A DNA stretch of 52,343 bases from NCBI GenBank assembly GCA_004321885.1, contig SCQK01000002.1, forward strand, positions 1 through 52,343, in the 5' to 3' direction. This document shows, piece after piece, positions 1 to 52,235 of this stretch. The notes beneath the pieces were generated by a model, which had not been told where the DNA came from, did not search any database, and saw nothing but the letters and a program-made list of their open reading frames with translations. The position numbers and the translations under genes are program-made. This DNA is from Patescibacteria group bacterium (GTDB lineage Bacteria; Patescibacteriota; Patescibacteriia; Magasanikbacterales; GWA2-37-8). Each line of letters begins with the position of its first letter. The stretch's first letter is position 1.

Positions 1-167
1 TGAAGCGCGCACAAGCCGCTGCGGCGGCGCGGCGCTATCTTCATGTACGAAGAAACAAACTTGCGCAAAGTGCCGATGTCCTTATAATCCACGGCCAGCC
101 TGTTATTCACGCAATAATAGCATTGCTTGCCTTTGAAAATGGTCGTCTGTGTTTTTGTCTTTAGCAT
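1..167 (-). CDS. rpsR: 30S ribosomal protein S18 (partial; start at 167, C-terminus runs off the window edge)
   Basis: Reverse-strand translation from ATG at 167..165 gives MLKTKTQTTIFKGKQCYYCVNNRLAVDYKDIGTLRKFVSSYMKIAPRRRSGLCA, matching the conserved S18 core (IDYKD..L..F.SE.GKI.PRR.TG). It lies downstream of ssb in the classical rpsF-ssb-rpsR order. Confidence 0.8.
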   Translation of the reverse strand, partial: MLKTKTQTTIFKGKQCYYCVNNRLAVDYKDIGTLRKFVSSYMKIAPRRRSGLCAL

Positions 168-2970: not shown

Positions 2971-4077
2971 ATGCCAAAAAAGAAAAAGGAATTATCCTCC
3001 TTTGAAGAAAAACTAAACCGGTGGGTGGCCAGCCATTTGAGCCGTGTGCCGACAATGCAAAAGGTCTTGTTTGTCAGCCACCTGAAAACCATGACCAAAG
3101 CCGGTCTGTCTCTGATTGACTCGCTAAAGACTTTGGAGCAGGAAATTGAAAACAAAAAACTGAAAAAAATCGTGGGCGAAATAGCGTGCGGCGTGGAAGC
3201 GGGCAAGCAGTTGAGCGAGGTGCTGGCCGAATATTCCAAAGTCTTCCCTTCCATTTACGTCAGCATGATTGCCGCCGGCGAAAAGGCCGGCAAACTGGAA
3301 CACGCCCTGGAGCAGGTCTCTTTGCAGATGAAAAAAAATCACGAGCTCATCGCGCGCGTGCGCGGCGCCATGATTTACCCGGCTATCATTGTGCTGGCCA
3401 TGGCCGGCATTGCCACAGAAGTGGTGGTCTTCATTTTGCCCAAGCTGATGACGATGTTCAAAGAAATGGACGCCGAACTGCCCCTGGCCACGCGCGCGCT
3501 TATCGGACTCACCGACGCGGTGGCGCGATACGGGCTGTGGATGGCGCTGGGCCTGGCCGCTTTTATTGTTTTAGCGGCCTGGGCCGTAAAAAAACCGCGC
3601 GTGAAAAAAGTGGTGCACACTGTCAATCTCAAACTGCCCATCGCTGGCAAAATCATAAAAAAAATCAACCTGGCGCGCTTTACCATGACCATGTCTTCTT
3701 TGCTTGAAAGCACCATCCCCATTATTGAGGCCGCGCGCATCACCGCCGACGTGCTGGGCAATGTCATTTACAAGCGCAGTTTGATGGACGTTTCCGAGGC
3801 GCTCAAAAAAGGCGAAACCCTGTCCGAAATTTTAGCCCGCTACCCGGACATTTTCCCGCCCATGGTCACTGAAATGATAACGGTGGGCGAAAAATCGGGC
3901 AAAACCGAAGAGATGCTTTCTGAACTGTCCGACTATTACTCCAATGAGGTTGACGTCACCATGAAAAATTTCACCACCATCATCGAGCCGGCCATTATTC
4001 TGGTGCTGGGCCTGGCCGTGGCCGGCATAGCCGTGGCCGTTATCATGCCCATGTATTCCCTCACCCAAAACATTTAG
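2971..4077 (+). CDS. pilC: Type IV pilus inner-membrane platform protein PilC (GspF family)
   Basis: 368 aa with two repeated GspF-type domains and three TM segments. It lies immediately downstream of pilB. Confidence 0.85.
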   Translation: MPKKKKELSSFEEKLNRWVASHLSRVPTMQKVLFVSHLKTMTKAGLSLIDSLKTLEQEIENKKLKKIVGEIACGVEAGKQLSEVLAEYSKVFPSIYVSMIAAGEKAGKLEHALEQVSLQMKKNHELIARVRGAMIYPAIIVLAMAGIATEVVVFILPKLMTMFKEMDAELPLATRALIGLTDAVARYGLWMALGLAAFIVLAAWAVKKPRVKKVVHTVNLKLPIAGKIIKKINLARFTMTMSSLLESTIPIIEAARITADVLGNVIYKRSLMDVSEALKKGETLSEILARYPDIFPPMVTEMITVGEKSGKTEEMLSELSDYYSNEVDVTMKNFTTIIEPAIILVLGLAVAGIAVAVIMPMYSLTQNI

Positions 4078-44995: not shown

Positions 44996-45137
44996 CGTTT
45001 CACCCCGATGTTCGTTGTGTTGTAAATGATTTTGGTCAAAGCCAAAATCATCTCACCCTAACATACACCGATAAAAAAATCAAGGCCTTGAGCCCTGATT
45101 TTGCGATTTTGACTGAATTCTGTTTTACCCCCTCCCT

Positions 45138-45168
45138 GTCACCACACCAAAATTTTTGGTGTGGTGAC
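45138..45168. repeat. Perfect 31-nt palindrome GTCACCACACCAAAA-T-TTTTGGTGTGGTGAC
   Basis: Seen directly in the sequence, in the intergenic region between the two Nudix genes. Confidence 0.6.
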
Positions 45169-45171
45169 AAG

Positions 45172-45194
45172 CCTCCCCCTTGTCAAGGGGGAGG
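45172..45194. repeat. Intergenic copy of the CTCCCCCTT-GTCA-AGGGGGAG palindromic element
   Basis: cctcccccttgtcaagggggagg. It is related to the in-frame elements at 7237 and 8212. Confidence 0.6.
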
Positions 45195-45197
45195 AAT

Positions 45198-45653
45198 TCA
45201 TCCCATCACCCTCTGCCAAAATCCCCTGTGCCCGTCAATAATATTCTTGGGCATGGTTTTGAAAAATCTGCCTTTTTTCGGCTTCATAATAGTCCGGCAC
45301 TCAAACACCAGCGACACTGTGTGCCCGCGCGAACCCTGGCTGCAATCATTGGCAAACAAAAATTTGGAATCGCTGACATTAATCCCCAGCTCTTTCCAGG
45401 CCACGGCCTGGATGCGTTCGTCAAAGCTCTCGCGAAAGCGCAGAAGACCGCCCGGGAAATGCCAGCCGCGCCACCACTGGTCGTCGCGCCAGGTGAGCAA
45501 CACGCCCCGCGGACTCTTTATCACCAGCTCTACGGCCGCAAAAGTTACTACGCCGAGCAGAGCTTCAAAAACCGGCTGTGGCAGGCCCTCGTGAGGGTTG
45601 TCTATTTTTTTCAGCAGGACGCAAAGCTGTTTTAATTCTTTCGCGTTTAACAT
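45198..45653 (-). CDS. Nudix hydrolase, GDP-mannose mannosyl hydrolase (Gmm)-like, second copy
   Basis: 151 aa with motifs VLLTWRD and GWHFPGGLLRFRESFDERIQAVAWKELG, paralogous to 14423..14875. Confidence 0.6.
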   Translation of the reverse strand: MLNAKELKQLCVLLKKIDNPHEGLPQPVFEALLGVVTFAAVELVIKSPRGVLLTWRDDQWWRGWHFPGGLLRFRESFDERIQAVAWKELGINVSDSKFLFANDCSQGSRGHTVSLVFECRTIMKPKKGRFFKTMPKNIIDGHRGFWQRVMG

Positions 45654-45690: not shown

Positions 45691-46734
45691 TCAACGCGCG
45701 CGAACCATAATAACAATGGCAAAAAAAAGAAAAATTACGGCGGCAATCATCCGCGCGCGGGGCTTGCCGCCAATGCCTTTCCATTCTCCGGAAATAAAGC
45801 CGGCGCCCTGGCCGCCCAAGATCTGCATGGCCTGGGCAATACCCACTCCCACCGAAGCCCCGACCGCTCCCAAAGCCACCATGCCCAGACCCTGCAAAGC
45901 AAAAGCGACAATCAGTTGCGAACCTATCAGAAGAGCCAGCGCGGCCTCGGATTTTTTTTGAAAAAAAACCGACCAAGACCTTTTTCTTATGATCAGCCAA
46001 ACCGGATAGGCCAAATTTATCACGGCGCCGCCGACAAATCCGCCGGCCCAGACGCCAAAATTGGCGGATATAACTCCGGCGCCCTGGGCTTTCATGGCCG
46101 CGATAATCGGCCCCTGGCTGTAGACAAAAGCCAGCGACGGACCCACTGAAAGCGCTCCGGCGATGATGGCCATTACCAGTCCGCCGCGAAAACTACCCGC
46201 TGGCGCGCAGACAACCGTTGGATATTTTTCAGACCGCTGATTTGCGATTTTTTCCCGGCCAAAGCCGGCCAACGCCGCCAAAAACACGCCGCCCAGCATT
46301 ATCGCCACGCCCGAAAGCACGGTTAGCCCGGCCAGAGAAAAAATATCCGGGGAATTTTCAAATAATCCGGTGCCTTTGAAAATCATGGGCAATATCACGG
46401 CCAGAGAAGCGCCCACGCCCGTCAGTATGGCGCCGGTCAAAGACAAACCAATGCGCTCGGCACAGCGGCCGGCCAGTACATTGGCCACTCCCCAGCCCAC
46501 CGCGAAAAGATTGGAAATAATTAGAGGCTTCCAGCCGACCGCGGCATAAGCGGCCCACGGATTGCCCACCCCGGCCAGCACCACTACCCATGGGATAATA
46601 AAAAGCGGCAACATACCGATAAACCAGTAGTGCTCAAACTTGTACTGGCGCATTTTTTTCATCGGCCACAAGGCGCTGCCGGTGCCCAGGCCGGCGATGG
46701 CGGAAAGCGCGACTCCTGAAAATATGGAAGACAT
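45691..46734 (-). CDS. DMT-superfamily sugar:proton symporter (RhaT-like)
   Basis: 347 aa with 10 TM helices and an RhaT-like repeat organisation. Confidence 0.5.
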   Translation of the reverse strand: MSSIFSGVALSAIAGLGTGSALWPMKKMRQYKFEHYWFIGMLPLFIIPWVVVLAGVGNPWAAYAAVGWKPLIISNLFAVGWGVANVLAGRCAERIGLSLTGAILTGVGASLAVILPMIFKGTGLFENSPDIFSLAGLTVLSGVAIMLGGVFLAALAGFGREKIANQRSEKYPTVVCAPAGSFRGGLVMAIIAGALSVGPSLAFVYSQGPIIAAMKAQGAGVISANFGVWAGGFVGGAVINLAYPVWLIIRKRSWSVFFQKKSEAALALLIGSQLIVAFALQGLGMVALGAVGASVGVGIAQAMQILGGQGAGFISGEWKGIGGKPRARMIAAVIFLFFAIVIMVRAR

Positions 46735-46817: not shown

Positions 46818-48542
46818 CTAAGCAGAAGATGAATTTACATATGGTATTTCCGCGTACAGGCCGGCGGACCATTTCTCGGGCATTTTTTGATCGGGATCAA
46901 TCATCAGCTCGCAGACAATCGGCCCGTCAAAATCCATAACTTTTTTTACCTTGTCCAACTCGCTGTCATTGTTAATCCGCTCAAAGGCAATGCCCCAGGC
47001 CGGAATTAGTTTGCTGAAATCCGGAATGCTCACTCCTGTCTCTGGGTCTGAAGCAAAAATCTTTTTAAAGAAATGCGTGTGCGTGGCCCGGATGGAATAA
47101 TAGCCATTGTTGTTGACAATAAAAATTTTAAGCGGCAGTTTGTGATGAACCACGGTTTGCAATTCCTGTAAATTCATCATTATGGAACCGTCGCCTTCAC
47201 TGCAGATGACGGCCTGGCGGCCACGCGCGATGCTGGCGCCAATGGCCATGGGCAGGCCCGAACCCATATGACCCAAACCGGCGTTGGTGAGAAACCGCTG
47301 GCCGCGGGAAACTTTAAGCGCCTGGTGAGGGGTAAGCGAAGCCATGCCATTGGCCGTGGTGATATCCAAACCTGGATTCCGGCTCCCGGGCCGGAATGAC
47401 ATGTTGCATGCGCCTATCTCGCGCCAAAATTTGTAGACATTCAAATATTTCGGGTCGCAGGCCAAATCAGCGGGATTGAGCGGCTCCACTTTCACGTCCC
47501 AGCGATTGAGGGTGATGTCTTGTTTGTATAATTCATCTAAAAATACTTTGGCATCGCAATGCACAGCCAAATCCACGGATAATTGTTTACGTTTCATTTC
47601 ATTGTCATCAATATCAACCATTATTTTTTTTGCGTTCGGCGCGAATTTATTGTAGTCCCATGAAACTTGCGTGAGTTGCATACGCTCGCCCACGATAAGC
47701 AGAAGGTCGCAGTTGTCTGCCGCGTAATTGGCGGCTTTGTTACCCGGCATTCCCTGCCTGCCCAAATAATAGGGATAGTCGTAAGTGACTAAATCATCAG
47801 CCGTAAAAATTGGCGTAACCGCGTTGATTTTAAATTTATCCAAAGACTTCCACAAAATTTCTTCGCCCCCGGCCAGACGTATGCCATTGCCGGCGATGAG
47901 CAGGGGGCGTTTGGCTTCGCGTAAAAGTGTGACGATTTTTTCCATTGTCGCGCGCTCCAGCGAACCTGGATTCCAGCTCTCGGGCTGGAATGATAAAAGT
48001 GTGTCCGGGTCAATTTCCGCGGCCTGCACGTCCAAAGGAATTTCCACAAACACCGGGCCGGGCCGGCCGTGGGTAGCTAAATACAGGGCTTTTTCCAGAT
48101 GATAGCGAATTTCATTTTCATTTTCCACGGTTACGGCGTACTTGCAAACCGGCTTGGCAATATCAATGACGTTTAATTCCTGAAAGCCGATGGCGCGCAC
48201 TACTGGTTGTCCGTTGGCATCGCGAGGCGTGATGTCCGCTCGCTTCACTTGTCCGGCAACAACAAACATCGGGATACTGTCCAGCCAGGCCCCGGCCATG
48301 CCGGTTACCGCGTTGGTGCCGCCCGGGCCCGTGGTTACCAGAGCGACCCCCGGAGAATTTTTTATCCTGCCATAGCCCTCGGCCGCGATGGCCACTGCCT
48401 GCTCGTGATGACAACAGTAAGATTTGAGGTTTGACCGGCCCAGTGAATCCACCAGGTGCATAATGCCGCCGCCCGAAACCAAAAAGACCGAGTCAGCCAC
48501 TTTTTGTTCAATAAATTGCCAGACGTAGTCGGATAGTTTCAT
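46818..48542 (-). CDS. Thiamine-diphosphate-dependent enzyme of the acetolactate-synthase/YerE family
   Basis: 574 aa with three ThDP-enzyme domains: an N-terminal Pyr domain (VFLVSGGGIMHL...GPGGTNAVTGMAGAW), a central domain, and a C-terminal PP domain with GDGS...NN ThDP-binding motif (GDGSIMMNLQEL...NNNGY). Confidence 0.75.
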   Translation of the reverse strand: MKLSDYVWQFIEQKVADSVFLVSGGGIMHLVDSLGRSNLKSYCCHHEQAVAIAAEGYGRIKNSPGVALVTTGPGGTNAVTGMAGAWLDSIPMFVVAGQVKRADITPRDANGQPVVRAIGFQELNVIDIAKPVCKYAVTVENENEIRYHLEKALYLATHGRPGPVFVEIPLDVQAAEIDPDTLLSFQPESWNPGSLERATMEKIVTLLREAKRPLLIAGNGIRLAGGEEILWKSLDKFKINAVTPIFTADDLVTYDYPYYLGRQGMPGNKAANYAADNCDLLLIVGERMQLTQVSWDYNKFAPNAKKIMVDIDDNEMKRKQLSVDLAVHCDAKVFLDELYKQDITLNRWDVKVEPLNPADLACDPKYLNVYKFWREIGACNMSFRPGSRNPGLDITTANGMASLTPHQALKVSRGQRFLTNAGLGHMGSGLPMAIGASIARGRQAVICSEGDGSIMMNLQELQTVVHHKLPLKIFIVNNNGYYSIRATHTHFFKKIFASDPETGVSIPDFSKLIPAWGIAFERINNDSELDKVKKVMDFDGPIVCELMIDPDQKMPEKWSAGLYAEIPYVNSSSA

Positions 48543-48545
48543 ACA

Positions 48546-49460
48546 CTAGAAAATAAGAAATTCAATCGCTTTATATACGCGGTCAACTGGTGATAACTCG
48601 GCATCCAACAATATATACGGCGGCTGATCCGGATTTTGTTTTTGGCCGGCAAACTCGTCAGAATTGGTAAAGCTGTAGGGGAAGCTCAACAGGCCTTCAT
48701 CATTGCCGAGCGGCATATCCCCAAAAGTGGCCACTTCATCTTCTTTAAAACCCAGTATCTTCAGCACGGTTTTAATGGCCACGGTCTTGCTGTCTTCATG
48801 CAGTTTTTTTGTCATGTGCACATAGGTATCATCGCCGGCGGCCGCGGTGAGCTCATTGCCCAATTCGGCGTTAAGCTCAGCCACCAGCTGGGCATGAATT
48901 GTTTTGTCTTTGGGCAAAACAAAAGTTACCTTGGCCTGCTCGGTGAAAAATTCCCCGTCAGCCGGGCGGCAGACGTCAATCATTTCAGCCGGCACATAGC
49001 CCTCCCAGCTATCCAACAAAAATTTTCTAAATGTCTCAATGCCTTTCTCGGCCAAGTCAGCGCGAGTGATGCCCAGATTGGCGTAGACTTTTTTCCCGAT
49101 TTCCACCGCTTTCAAAATTTGCGGCATTTCCAGGCCGTGATTATATATCTCAATCAACTGGTCTTTTTTTACCTCGTACAATGTGGTGCTATTGCCCCCG
49201 GCCACAAAGCTGGGCACAGACACATTTTCTTTATTCAACAGCTCCTGCAAGGGCGGCACCAACACCTTGATGGCTGTGGCCGCGCGCGCGGAAATAAAAG
49301 CCACTGATTTGTTTTTCTTTAAAATTTTATCCACCAACTCAAAAACCTGGGGCTGTTTGTGCGTGGCATCGCCGAGCGTGCCATCGTAATCCAAGCCGAA
49401 CAATTTGATTTTTGTTTTTGCTTCCTCTAATTTGACCTGCGCGATTTCGGAGTGATTCAT
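48546..49460 (-). CDS. HAD-superfamily phosphatase (HAD-IIB, sugar-phosphate phosphatase-like)
   Basis: 304 aa with motif I DYDGTL and motif IV GDMPLGNDEG. Confidence 0.65.
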   Translation of the reverse strand: MNHSEIAQVKLEEAKTKIKLFGLDYDGTLGDATHKQPQVFELVDKILKKNKSVAFISARAATAIKVLVPPLQELLNKENVSVPSFVAGGNSTTLYEVKKDQLIEIYNHGLEMPQILKAVEIGKKVYANLGITRADLAEKGIETFRKFLLDSWEGYVPAEMIDVCRPADGEFFTEQAKVTFVLPKDKTIHAQLVAELNAELGNELTAAAGDDTYVHMTKKLHEDSKTVAIKTVLKILGFKEDEVATFGDMPLGNDEGLLSFPYSFTNSDEFAGQKQNPDQPPYILLDAELSPVDRVYKAIEFLIF

Positions 49461-49464
49461 AACT

Positions 49465-49585
49465 TTAGCTCAAGTAAGCGCCGTCTGGATGTGCTCGCAG
49501 CGGCTTGTGGCGCCCAGAGCGCCACGCCCGAGCCCTCGCGGGCGAGGAAAGCGAGAGCACATCAAGACGGCGCGAACGAGAAAAT
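49465..49585. ncRNA. GC-rich, highly structured intergenic element with nested inverted repeats (GCGCCGTCTGGATGTGCTCGC ... GCGAGAGCACATCAAGACGGCGC). It is a candidate structured RNA or REP-like element
   Basis: A long imperfect inverted repeat encloses two inner hairpins (TGGCGC-CCAGA-GCGCCA and GCCCTCGCGGGC). Its GC content is far above the flanking sequence, and no coding potential is apparent. Confidence 0.35.
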
Positions 49586-51144
49586 TAAAGTACCCAATAA
49601 GTTAAAATTGTTTTACGATTTTTGTTTTGCGCGATGCTTTCGTCGGCGTAGTAAGAATCATCCTTATAGTGAGTGGTGGAAATTTCTTCAAACACGCAGC
49701 CGTTTTTGGTGGAAAACCCGTGCGCTAAATCGCGCTCTATCGTCACAATATCGCCGGGCCCGCTTTCTTTGATGACGCCGTTTAGGTCAAAAATCGCGTC
49801 GCCCCACAAGATATGAAAGGTCTCTTCTTTTAATTTATGCGAGTGCACCGGGTGTTTTTGGCCGGGCAGAAGTACAATCAATTTTTTGCAATATTCGCGG
49901 TTGAAACAATTTATCAGGCTGGCGCCGTATTCGTAGAATTTTTCTATGCCATAATGATGCGACAGCTCAAATTCCCACTTGTTTGATACCGGGATATTGG
50001 CGTTTTTGAGCAGCTGGTTGATTTGGGAAATGGCGGTATAAACCTGCTCGCGCAATTCCAGACAATTTACGTCCGCGGCCATGATGGGCTCGTTTTTCTT
50101 GAAGTCGCGGCTGGCCGTAAACACCGTGTATTTGGACAGGTCGTTGGCCAAAACCTGCCCGGCCATGTTGGGAAACGCGAAAAAAGAATTTTTGATGTCC
50201 ACGCGCTCGCCCGGCCTGATATCGCCGGCCGCGAACACTCCGCGCTGAAACTGGCGGATGTCGGCCAGCTCCTGGGGCGCGAAATCATGGCGCCTCCCGG
50301 AAACGCCGCAAGCGCGAAACGCCTCGGCCGCGGCTTCCAGCCATTTTTGTACCTGGTCTGGCGTGGCTGAATAGCCGTTTACGGAATACTTTTCGCTTTT
50401 AGCCGAGACATGCTTTTCAAAAGTGCCGGCGCCTTTGGCCACGGCCAGCTTTACCGCGTCAAAATTGTCGGCGTGTTCGTGGGTGGAAAAACCAATGGTT
50501 ATTTCCGGGTACCGCTCGCGCAACAAAGTAATCTGATTGAATTGCAGCTGCTCGTGGGGGGTGGGATACTGCCCGATGCAGTGCTCCAGCGCGAATTTTT
50601 TATTGCGGTTGATGAAAAAACTCACCACGCGGTCAATTTTTTCCAAAGCCGCGCCGCCGGTGGAGGCGATAATCGGCTTATCGGTTTTGGCAATGGCCTC
50701 CAAAAGCGTCCAGTCGGTAAAAGAACAGCTGGCGACTTTAATAATATCATAGCCGTGGCGCGCCACATTTTCCACGGACTTTTCGTCAAAAGGCGTGCAC
50801 ATGGAAATGAAGCCCAGCTTGTCGGCCTCGCTCTTTAATATCAAAAATTCCTCGCCCGTCAACCGCGCCTCGGAAAATCTTTTGATATATTTCAAATCCA
50901 TCCGCTCTTTATAATCCGGATGGATAAAAGTGTCCAGGTCGCGATACTGGAACTTGAACGCGAACCGGAAACCCAAATCCGGAGCAATAAAATTTTTACA
51001 GACCTCGCCAATCTCCCTGATTATTTTCAAGCCAAACTCCACATCGCCCATGTGGTTGTTGGCCAGCTCAAAAATAAAAAGAGGCGCCGCCGTTCCTCCT
51101 CTTTGCGCGAAAATCGCGTCAATTTTTTCCGCCATAATATACAT
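49585..51144 (-). CDS. NeuB-family nonulosonate (sialic-acid-like) synthase fused to a C-terminal cupin domain
   Basis: 519 aa. Residues 1-350 carry a NeuB/SpsE PEP-condensing TIM barrel plus SAF domain. Residues 400-519 form a cupin fold (HSHKLKEETFHILWGDAIFDLNG...). The start overlaps the fcl stop as TAATG. Confidence 0.65.
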   Translation of the reverse strand: MYIMAEKIDAIFAQRGGTAAPLFIFELANNHMGDVEFGLKIIREIGEVCKNFIAPDLGFRFAFKFQYRDLDTFIHPDYKERMDLKYIKRFSEARLTGEEFLILKSEADKLGFISMCTPFDEKSVENVARHGYDIIKVASCSFTDWTLLEAIAKTDKPIIASTGGAALEKIDRVVSFFINRNKKFALEHCIGQYPTPHEQLQFNQITLLRERYPEITIGFSTHEHADNFDAVKLAVAKGAGTFEKHVSAKSEKYSVNGYSATPDQVQKWLEAAAEAFRACGVSGRRHDFAPQELADIRQFQRGVFAAGDIRPGERVDIKNSFFAFPNMAGQVLANDLSKYTVFTASRDFKKNEPIMAADVNCLELREQVYTAISQINQLLKNANIPVSNKWEFELSHHYGIEKFYEYGASLINCFNREYCKKLIVLLPGQKHPVHSHKLKEETFHILWGDAIFDLNGVIKESGPGDIVTIERDLAHGFSTKNGCVFEEISTTHYKDDSYYADESIAQNKNRKTILTYWVL

Positions 51145-52103
51145 TATTTTAAGTTACAATTTGATTGATACCAATCATAGGTCGTTTTGAGTCCTTGGTC
51201 AAGCTCTATTTTGTGCCGCCAGCCCAGGGCCCGGATGCGGGAAATATCCAGTGTCCTCCGGAAAACGCCGTCCGGCTTGGCCGGGTCCCATTCAATTTTT
51301 CCCTCATAGCCCGTAATTTTTTGAATCAGCTCGGCCAAATCCTTTATCGTGATATCCTGGCCCATGCCCAGATTCGCGAAAATTTCTCCCCGCTCGTTCT
51401 GTTCTTTGGTCGGATTAAAATGCTCCATTAAAAATATACAGCCGTCGGCCATATCGTCCGCGTGCAAAAATTCCCGCCAGGGCGCGCCCGTGCCCCAGAG
51501 CGTCACTTTTTTTTCTCCACTTGTTTTGGCCTCGTGAAATTTGCGCAGCAGGGCCGGAATCACGTGCGAATTTTGCAAATCAAAATTATCGCCGGGCCCG
51601 TACAAGTTGGCCGGCATCACCGCGATAAAATTAGCGCCGTATTGGCGGTTATAACTCTGGCACATTTTCAGCCCGGCAATTTTGGCGACAGCGTAAGGTT
51701 CGTTGGTCGGCTCCAGCGGCCCGGACAGCAGATATTCCTCTTTTATCGGCAACTGGCAAACCTTTGGGTAGATGCAGGCCGAACCCAAAAACAAAAGCTT
51801 CCTTACATTATATATATAGGAAGCGTGAATGACGTTGTTTTGTATGGCCAGATTATTATAAATAAAATCAGCCGGATAGGTGTTGTTGGCGCCGATGCCG
51901 CCCACCTTGGCCGCGGCCAAAAAAACGTATTCCGGTTTTTCAGCCGCAAAAAAATCATTGACCGCTTTTTGCTCGCGCAAATCCAATTCTTGATGGGTTT
52001 TTAACAAAAAATTGCCAAAGCCCTCGGCCCGCAAACGGCTAACCAAAGCCGAACCCACCAATCCGCGGTGTCCGGCAACATAAACTTTGGCATTTTTTTC
52101 CAT
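51144..52103 (-). CDS. fcl: GDP-L-fucose synthase (GDP-4-keto-6-deoxy-D-mannose 3,5-epimerase/4-reductase)
   Basis: Start trimmed to MEKNAKVYVAGHRGLVGSALVSRL (ATG at 52103), because the longer ORF runs through tRNA-Ala. Fcl-specific motifs include FLGSACIYPK. Confidence 0.85.
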   Translation of the reverse strand: MEKNAKVYVAGHRGLVGSALVSRLRAEGFGNFLLKTHQELDLREQKAVNDFFAAEKPEYVFLAAAKVGGIGANNTYPADFIYNNLAIQNNVIHASYIYNVRKLLFLGSACIYPKVCQLPIKEEYLLSGPLEPTNEPYAVAKIAGLKMCQSYNRQYGANFIAVMPANLYGPGDNFDLQNSHVIPALLRKFHEAKTSGEKKVTLWGTGAPWREFLHADDMADGCIFLMEHFNPTKEQNERGEIFANLGMGQDITIKDLAELIQKITGYEGKIEWDPAKPDGVFRRTLDISRIRALGWRHKIELDQGLKTTYDWYQSNCNLK

Positions 52104-52104
52104 G

Positions 52105-52177
52105 TGGACCTCAGGGGGATCGAACCCCTTACCTCTTCCGTGCCACGGAAGCGCTCTACCAAATGAGCTAGAGGCCC
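52105..52177 (-). tRNA. tRNA-Ala (anticodon GGC)
   Basis: Manual fold: acceptor GGGCCTC/GAGGTCC with a G3:U70 pair, D arm GCTC-ATTTGGTA-GAGC, anticodon stem CTTCC/GGAAG with loop GTGGCAC, T arm AGGGG-TTCGATC-CCCCT, and discriminator A. The G3:U70 pair is the alanine identity element. Confidence 0.8.
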
Positions 52178-52235
52178 TCATTTCTCCTAAATACTATTAG
52201 AAAATGTTTGCTTTGTCAAACAGATGTACAGTTAA

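Follow-up and report, generated by a model that had tools for sequence, protein, structure and literature searches.

A GC-rich nested palindrome between the NeuB-cupin and HAD phosphatase genes of a Patescibacteria glycan operon: a possible orphan MITE-like insertion

The spacer between the NeuB-cupin and HAD-IIB phosphatase genes of a Patescibacteria (CPR) contig contains a GC-rich nested palindrome, the structure of which is real and lies far beyond what chance would produce. Judged by comparison with related loci, the palindrome is a derived, lineage-specific insertion and not a conserved feature of the operon, and we reject a switch that responds to a ligand or a signal. The explanation that we prefer, to which we assign a probability of roughly one half, is that it represents an orphan, lineage-specific, MITE-like palindromic insertion that is co-transcribed with the flanking genes and forms an intercistronic hairpin in the mRNA.

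Locus and architecture of the palindrome

The window, by which we mean the whole 52,343-nt stretch of DNA that was analyzed, comes from a Patescibacteria (CPR) MAG contig, and the element lies within a glycan-biosynthesis operon on its minus strand. A preliminary description, made from the sequence alone, had placed the element in a non-coding spacer of a co-directional operon, flanked by a NeuB-fusion gene and a HAD phosphatase gene. The domains and strands agree with that description, and the spacer measures 124 nt (49461-49584, minus strand) from the NeuB-cupin stop to the HAD-IIB start. The NeuB-cupin gene (49585-51144, with its TAA stop at 49585-49587) encodes a protein of 519 aa (TAN34210.1) that consists of a NeuB-family sugar-phosphate/PEP condensing enzyme and a C-terminal cupin, and its upstream neighbor is a GDP-fucose-synthase-like (fcl-like) gene. 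The Cof-type HAD-IIB phosphatase gene (48546-49460, with its ATG at 49458-49460; EPN28_00515) encodes 304 aa (TAN34209.1). Downstream of it, also on the minus strand, are genes for a TPP-dependent acetolactate-synthase-like enzyme (46818-48542), separated from the HAD gene by only 3 nt, a RhaT-like transporter (45691-46734) and a NUDIX protein (45198-45653). The NeuB-HAD pair presumably resembles a nonulosonate-9-phosphate synthase and its phosphatase. These proteins are known only from the present MAG and one Logan contig, so that the lineage has been sampled once.

Several other features of the contig were recorded. A tRNA-Ala(GGC) (52104-52177, minus strand) ends 1 nt ahead of the ATG (52102) of the fcl-like gene, which is the first gene of the operon, and a promoter-like TTGACA-17-TAGTAT lies upstream of the tRNA at 52219-52191 on the minus strand. 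The tRNA and the glycan operon may form one common transcript. The listed 345-aa ORF at 51144-52181 runs over the tRNA, and the 319-aa call in the Logan contig, L001, is the better fit. The module formed by the NeuB-cupin, HAD-IIB and TPP-dependent acetolactate-synthase-like genes (window 46818-51144; loci L048-L136) is kept in many CPR genomes, where it is often accompanied by NUDIX, radical-SAM/SPASM and methyltransferase genes. The contig starts, as read from the translations, with minus-strand rpsR (S18; 1-176), ssb (187-630) and rpsF (S6; 646-1110) genes. The Gly/Pro/Ala-rich tail of ssb gives rise to a strongly folding stretch of 75% GC, which is coding sequence and not a second element.

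The core of the element (49478-49573, both strands) is a nested palindrome of 96 nt and 72% GC, in which an outer stem and two inner hairpins meet at a three-way junction. An inverted-repeat search located the outer arms at 49478-49496 (plus-strand sequence GCGCCGTCTGGATGTGCTC), which is promoter-distal on the mRNA, and at 49555-49573 (plus-strand sequence GAGCACATCAAGACGGCGC), which is promoter-proximal. The arms are 19 nt long and 18 of the 19 positions are paired (95%), the single mismatch reading U.C in the mRNA and G.A in the plus strand. Inner hairpin B (49507-49525; GTGGCGC-CCAGA-GCGCCAC) has a 7-bp stem and inner hairpin A (approximately 49534-49547; CCTCG-CGGG-CGAGG) a 5-bp stem, with an alternative pairing of 49522-49530 with 49539-49547 near hairpin A. 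Both hairpins, together with the 19-nt arms, recover the long outer inverted repeat and two inner hairpins that had been noted in the preliminary description. The outer stem is extended by the weak pairs UUC/GAG and GU/AC, and its base lies 11 nt past the NeuB stop and 17 nt ahead of the HAD ATG. The MFE and centroid folds concur in a single fold. Within this single sequence, pairing in the core is almost wholly Watson-Crick and its stability is equal on both strands, as would be expected of a palindrome at the level of DNA and not of an RNA selected on one strand.

The predicted fold is more stable than chance would give. RNA in the mRNA sense has an MFE of -68.9 kcal/mol (z -5.4) and RNA of the plus strand one of -69.3 kcal/mol (z -6.9), and the DNA fold has a z of -5.35, with no shuffled sequence as stable in any of the three cases. 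A comparable pair of arms was found in none of 100 shuffles of the window. The element is also the stablest 100-nt segment of the 52 kb, at -52.3 kcal/mol against a mean of -21.4 (sd 7.6). When the intergenic gaps of at least 50 nt were compared (n = 12 in all), the spacer stood at 63% GC and -0.53 kcal/mol per nt, while the others reached at most 51% GC and -0.36 kcal/mol per nt. At 72% GC the core exceeds both the window as a whole (47%) and the flanks of 500 nt (44-48%), although some nearby coding stretches attain 65-69% GC when measured over 120 nt. The earlier statement that GC content is far above the local background therefore holds with respect to the immediate flanks and the other spacers, but not with respect to some of the nearby coding sequence.

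Homologous loci and the search for further copies

The locus described here was compared with ten others, taken from further genomes and metagenomes of the CPR and chosen by HAD homologues 70-77% identical to that of the window. The order of the NeuB-cupin gene, the HAD gene and usually the TPP enzyme gene was constant in all ten, and in nine of them the NeuB and HAD genes either overlapped or were 1-30 nt apart. The distance from the NeuB stop to the HAD start was an overlap in L129, 1 nt in L128, L130 and L136, 4 nt in L049/L050, 9 nt in L052, 10 nt in L133 and L134, and 30 nt in L135; the tenth locus, L048, had an unrelated, AT-rich hairpin at the junction. The element of the window was absent from the NeuB-HAD junction in 10 of 10 loci, and a single-sequence covariance model of the element (R1), run against the CPR loci, matched only the truncated copy in L001. 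In an alignment of the junction (A1), the 3' end of NeuB was conserved up to the stop and the extra sequence of the window began just past TTTAATTTT. Since the genes of the relatives abut and lack the element, the element of the window appears to be a derived insertion. Amino acid identity to the relatives holds level from one side of the junction to the other (67-71% for NeuB, 73-77% for HAD and 72-75% for the TPP enzyme); a recombination breakpoint was therefore rejected, and the element marks no recombination seam.

Other palindromes were observed in the same operon of related genomes. At the NeuB-HAD junction of L048 there is a 243-nt spacer (3758-4000) of 21% GC, which forms one hairpin of approximately 180 nt (-61.6 kcal/mol) with the long inverted repeats AAAAAATATTTAATTACC / GGTAATTAATATTTTTT and has the appearance of a MITE-like insertion of AT-rich DNA. 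Between the HAD and TPP genes of a CPR genome from Hainich groundwater there is a 98-nt nested hairpin of 64% GC (L049 4931-5028, also L050 4931-5028 and L051 from 2418), the sequence of which reads TGTCATTCCGACCGACCCGCC...GGGAGGAATCCC and is also given as TGTCATTCCGACC.... This L049-type element had no matches in plasmids or IMG/VR. Its homology to the element of the window was rejected, the local alignment score of the two lying inside the range of shuffled sequences, and the palindromes of the window, of L048 and of L049/L050/L051 are all unrelated in sequence. The Logan contig L051 breaks off precisely 30 nt inside the L049-type element. The Logan graph is built with k=31, and a contig that ends 30 nt into a sequence shows the behavior expected at the boundary of a repeat, so that this end point hints at a repeat in that metagenome. 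That independent and unrelated palindromes occur in this operon in other CPR genomes suggests that palindromic insertions are gained and lost at the few non-coding junctions which such compact genomes possess.

A second copy of the element was sought in the 52-kb window, and none was found with a pattern search allowing 3 mismatches, with blastn at a word size of 7 nt, with nhmmer --max or with covariance model R1. A 14-nt exact partial match at window 10-23 was rejected, as it falls inside the S18 coding sequence and is a chance match. The window amounts to approximately 5% of a typical CPR genome, and the finding of a single copy there excludes a REP-like family of high density while being compatible with a family of low copy number. 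A scan with the exact arm gave 46 matches among 185,579 GTDB species representatives and 74 matches among JGI metagenomes, in both cases all single and seed-only, and 0 matches in IMG/VR. All 120 of these matches were chance matches of 19-22 nt in high-GC DNA without extended similarity, and the two that were inspected were coding (a GreA gene and a glycosyltransferase-like ORF). Searches by blastn against plasmids and phages returned only sub-significant GC-rich fragments. For copies that might be carried in miscalled ORFs, six-frame peptides were compared with 5.8 billion clustered proteins, which gave 4,946 word candidates and none at E<=1. The arm sequence GCCGTCTGGA resembles the Neisseria DNA-uptake sequence (DUS) GCCGTCTGAA, but this candidate was rejected: a single exact DUS occurs in the window, with six matches at no more than 1 mismatch compared with 2.9 expected, and the contig is from Patescibacteria. 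Nothing relevant on palindromic or MITE elements of Patescibacteria/CPR was found in the literature.

Regulatory, terminator and repeat-family explanations

The preliminary description had offered a riboswitch or attenuator controlling the phosphatase as one explanation, and we now regard a cis-regulatory RNA of this kind (a riboswitch, an attenuator or a protein-binding leader) acting on the HAD phosphatase and the downstream genes as very improbable. The element does lie directly upstream of the HAD start within the operon, it is very stable, and the only SD-like sequence, a GAG at -12 to -10 from the HAD ATG, takes part in pairing. That GAG is touched, however, solely by the weak UUC/GAG extension of the stem, and a clear SD at the HAD start is also missing in the relatives, in which the two genes abut and the element does not occur; the lack of the same structure from the ten related loci is the outcome that the preliminary description had itself named as speaking against its proposal. 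The covariance-model search that it had recommended gave no credible match in Rfam 15 for the spacer at E<=10, where the best hit was a plant miRNA model whose 21.9 bits fell short of its gathering score of 75, and a scan of the whole window at the Rfam gathering thresholds returned only three tRNAs. No expression platform was found, neither a terminator with a U-tract nor an alternative fold, and the near-perfect palindrome, which folds equally on both strands, leaves few unpaired positions that look conserved. Hammerhead and other small ribozymes, as well as tRNA-like structures, were rejected for want of any Rfam or ARAGORN match. A hidden 106-aa ORF on the plus strand (49452-49772) was likewise rejected, since it is antisense to the conserved 3' end of NeuB and has no Pfam hit and no peptide homologue; on the coding strand, read-through from NeuB to HAD is out of frame over the 124 nt and is stopped by a stop codon. 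A canonical intrinsic (Rho-independent) terminator can be dismissed as well: the hairpin is present, but the sequence past the stem, UUACUUGAGCUAAAG, is not a U-run, and a consensus scan listed neither promoter-like nor terminator-like sites within the spacer. The end of the operon after the NUDIX gene is marked by a hairpin with a U7 tail (approximately 45072-45102), and the operon's own U7 terminator makes the missing U-tract at the element meaningful. A terminator lacking a U-tract ('I-shaped'), or a pause site, that divides the operon after NeuB would be in keeping with a strong GC-rich hairpin 11 nt past a stop codon, and yet we think it improbable, given that the organism appears to use U-tract terminators, that no promoter-like site is available to restart transcription of HAD, that the relatives have no gap at this junction and that a branched fold of 96 nt is unlike a simple terminator hairpin.

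The 202-nt spacer past the NUDIX gene (44996-45197, read in the minus sense) is predicted to fold still more strongly than the element, with an RNA MFE of -88.6 kcal/mol (z -8.95). It contains at 45172-45194 a GC-rich hairpin, CCUCCCCCUUGACAAGGGGGAGG, and at 45137-45169 a perfect palindrome of 16 bp, the latter followed by GGGAGGGGG, which could pair instead with the first CCUCCCCC. The U7 hairpin and a fourth hairpin of 12-14 bp come next, and are followed by an SD, GGGGUGA, and by the ATG (44995) of an ORF of 216 aa without a Pfam match. No match to this spacer was found in Rfam.

Three further explanations bear on the origin of the element. A genuine multi-copy repeat family of this genome, of REP/REPIN or MITE type and with its copies on other contigs, is a possibility that we rate as unlikely. 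The element has a terminal inverted repeat round a structured core, an intergenic position in an operon and a foreign-looking composition (72% GC versus 47%), and independent palindromic insertions occur elsewhere in the same operon. The ends of two Logan contigs also favor such a family. In addition to L051 with its end in the L049-type element, L001 (SRR8426592, an independent assembly) matches the window exactly over the NeuB gene and over the initial 58 nt of the spacer (L001 2670-2727, equal to window 49527-49584) and then ends within the element; when the HAD and TPP proteins were looked up by exact sequence, the collection listed no gene from which a Logan contig for the other side could be obtained. 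The break in L001, however, lies 47 nt into the core and not 30, and could reflect a repeat, variation between strains or poor coverage of a hairpin rich in GC. Also weighing against a family are the single copy in about 5% of a typical genome, the lack of any copy in the public collections scanned by exact arm and of any spurious ORF carrying the element, the lack of a convincing target duplication, and the position of the motif CGTC in the stem instead of in an unpaired tag beside a hairpin of 8-9 bp. In form the element suits the earlier suggestion of a REP-like repeat, being palindromic, intergenic and within an operon, but repetition was not found in the window or in the collections scanned, and the tag architecture of a REP is not present. 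The same L001 contig, being the only other assembly and stopping inside an element that is otherwise seen on a single MAG contig, might raise the suspicion of an artefact of assembly or sequencing; we judge this extremely improbable, considering that a different assembler produced the first 58 nt exactly, that the arms are imperfect (18/19), unlike those of a fold-back chimera, and that intact genes stand in the correct order on both sides. A site acting at the DNA level, such as a cruciform, a recombinase target or the scar of a cassette boundary in a mosaic glycan locus, would account for the symmetry of the palindrome on both strands, and glycan loci are indeed mosaic, with gene content round NeuB-HAD-TPP that varies among the relatives and another palindrome at the same junction of L048. 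Against it, identity does not jump across the junction, the NeuB-HAD adjacency is kept in all relatives, and no integrase or recombinase was found among the annotated neighbors. An integron attC site was specifically rejected: both strands were read and no GTTRRRY / RYYYAAC pair of core sites was found at the borders, and the conserved adjacency of NeuB and HAD is not cassette-like. A DNA-level role therefore seems quite remote.

Proposed effect and comparison with known systems

Under the preferred explanation, that of an orphan MITE-like insertion, a GC-rich palindromic DNA of approximately 100-120 bp would have inserted at the only non-coding position between NeuB-cupin and HAD, which in the ancestral arrangement would have adjoined one another and were probably coupled in translation. 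Its form would be that of a MITE-, ERIC- or Correia-like element, with 19-bp TIRs round a structured core, and we call it an orphan since neither another copy nor a parent element was found in the sequences searched. The element would be transcribed as part of an operon that we infer to comprise the tRNA-Ala, fcl, NeuB, the element, HAD, the TPP enzyme, the RhaT-like transporter, NUDIX and the U-tract terminator, and its transcript would fold into a compact stem-loop with a three-way junction. Such a fold would return the NeuB stop and the HAD start to within approximately 28 unpaired nt of one another, and we propose that the insertion has been tolerated since the fold restores the proximity of NeuB and HAD. 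Judging from Correia elements and REPs, the duplex of approximately 20 bp could block 3'-to-5' exonucleases and so stabilize the upstream fcl-NeuB segment or, alternatively, it could be cut by RNase III; with either event the coupling of NeuB and HAD expression would be loosened and the NeuB:HAD ratio changed. The element may therefore serve as an exonuclease barrier or an RNase III site, and the mRNA-stabilizing structure that had been among the explanations first put forward is plausible as a consequence of the insertion. The data agree equally well with a neutral passenger.

It is tempting to speculate that the palindromes of the window, of L049/L050/L051 and of L048 offer a first view of small, palindromic mobile elements of the CPR that belong to undescribed families, although we consider this a doubtful proposition. 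Such families would colonize the intercistronic junctions of a few nt that are found in tight operons and would be tolerated by folding out of the mRNA, in analogy to mitochondrial GC clusters or Rickettsia palindromic elements, and the Logan contigs that end inside two of the elements would then have stopped at repeat boundaries. As it stands, a single unconserved palindromic insertion with only a putative function matters little, and it is unsuited to annotation as a riboswitch or regulatory RNA. The spacing of genes at homologous loci is nevertheless a useful test by which 'structured and conserved' can be told from 'structured and inserted'. Should more copies be found in this or related CPR genomes, they would represent small non-autonomous mobile DNA in a radiation with reduced genomes that are usually considered poor in repeats, and the influence of a highly stable intercistronic hairpin on translational coupling could then be seen in a natural setting.

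The element was compared with known systems. It resembles riboswitches and the cis-regulatory leaders of Rfam in being a structured RNA upstream of a metabolic gene, but differs from them in having no covariance-model match, no conservation at the locus and no expression platform, and in being a symmetrical palindrome. Yeast mitochondrial GC clusters and the Rickettsia palindromic elements (RPEs) are, like the element, short GC-rich hairpin insertions with a composition that sets them apart in compact genomes, and they turn up sporadically at sites that vary among related genomes. Both are multi-copy families, and RPEs often lie in frame within genes, whereas no family was detected for the present element and its host is only moderately AT-rich (47% GC).

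With regard to MITEs, the element has the terminal inverted repeats (19 bp, 18/19) and, at 96 nt, a length within the 50-500 bp that define the class. Copies with different flanks, or a parent IS, were found neither in the window nor in the public collections scanned, and there was no transposase or RAYT among the 16 ORFs annotated around the element. The flanks read ...TTTTCTCGTTC / element / TTACTTGAGCT... and share a direct repeat of no more than 2 nt, a CT/CT repeat being present only when the borders are shifted outward over the weak extension of the stem.

REP and REPIN sequences are described in two reports (PMC3733652, PMC3116915) as extragenic GC-rich palindromes that as inverted dimers form hairpins of approximately 100 nt, with proposed roles in mRNA stabilization and termination. 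One of these reports places REPs mostly downstream of ORFs and between co-directional genes, where they are plausibly transcribed (PMC3733652). A REP unit is a hairpin of 20-40 nt in which an unpaired GTAG/CGTC tag stands by a stem of 8-9 bp with a loop of 4-5 nt and a short tail (PMC3733652). REP/REPIN elements are thus tagged by GTAG or CGTC, mobilized by RAYTs and present in high copy number. In the present element the CGTC (49481-49484, with its inverted partner) forms part of the paired outer stem of 19 bp, next to sequence that lacks self-complementarity, and the arms are not palindromic in themselves; repetition was not found in the sequences searched, and no RAYT was seen nearby.

The Correia (CREE/NEMIS) elements of Neisseria and the ERIC/IRU elements of enterobacteria form families of tens to hundreds of copies per genome with a defined consensus and, in the case of Correia, a TA target duplication. 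The present element differs from them in that one copy was found, without a consensus or a convincing target duplication, in a different phylum (Patescibacteria) and with no sequence similarity. We accordingly file it under the broad heading of bacterial intergenic palindromic insertion elements, and in no named family. It is nonetheless like the Correia and ERIC elements in its size class (approximately 100-150 bp) and in having TIRs that enclose a core. In one report, RNase III binds, cleaves or protects Correia elements, and the elements change the expression of the genes next to them (PMC2649163). According to three reports (PMC2649163, PMC2229807, PMC10969869), Correia and ERIC elements are inserted between co-directional genes and are co-transcribed with them, the long stem then acting as a substrate for RNase III or as protection for the mRNA.
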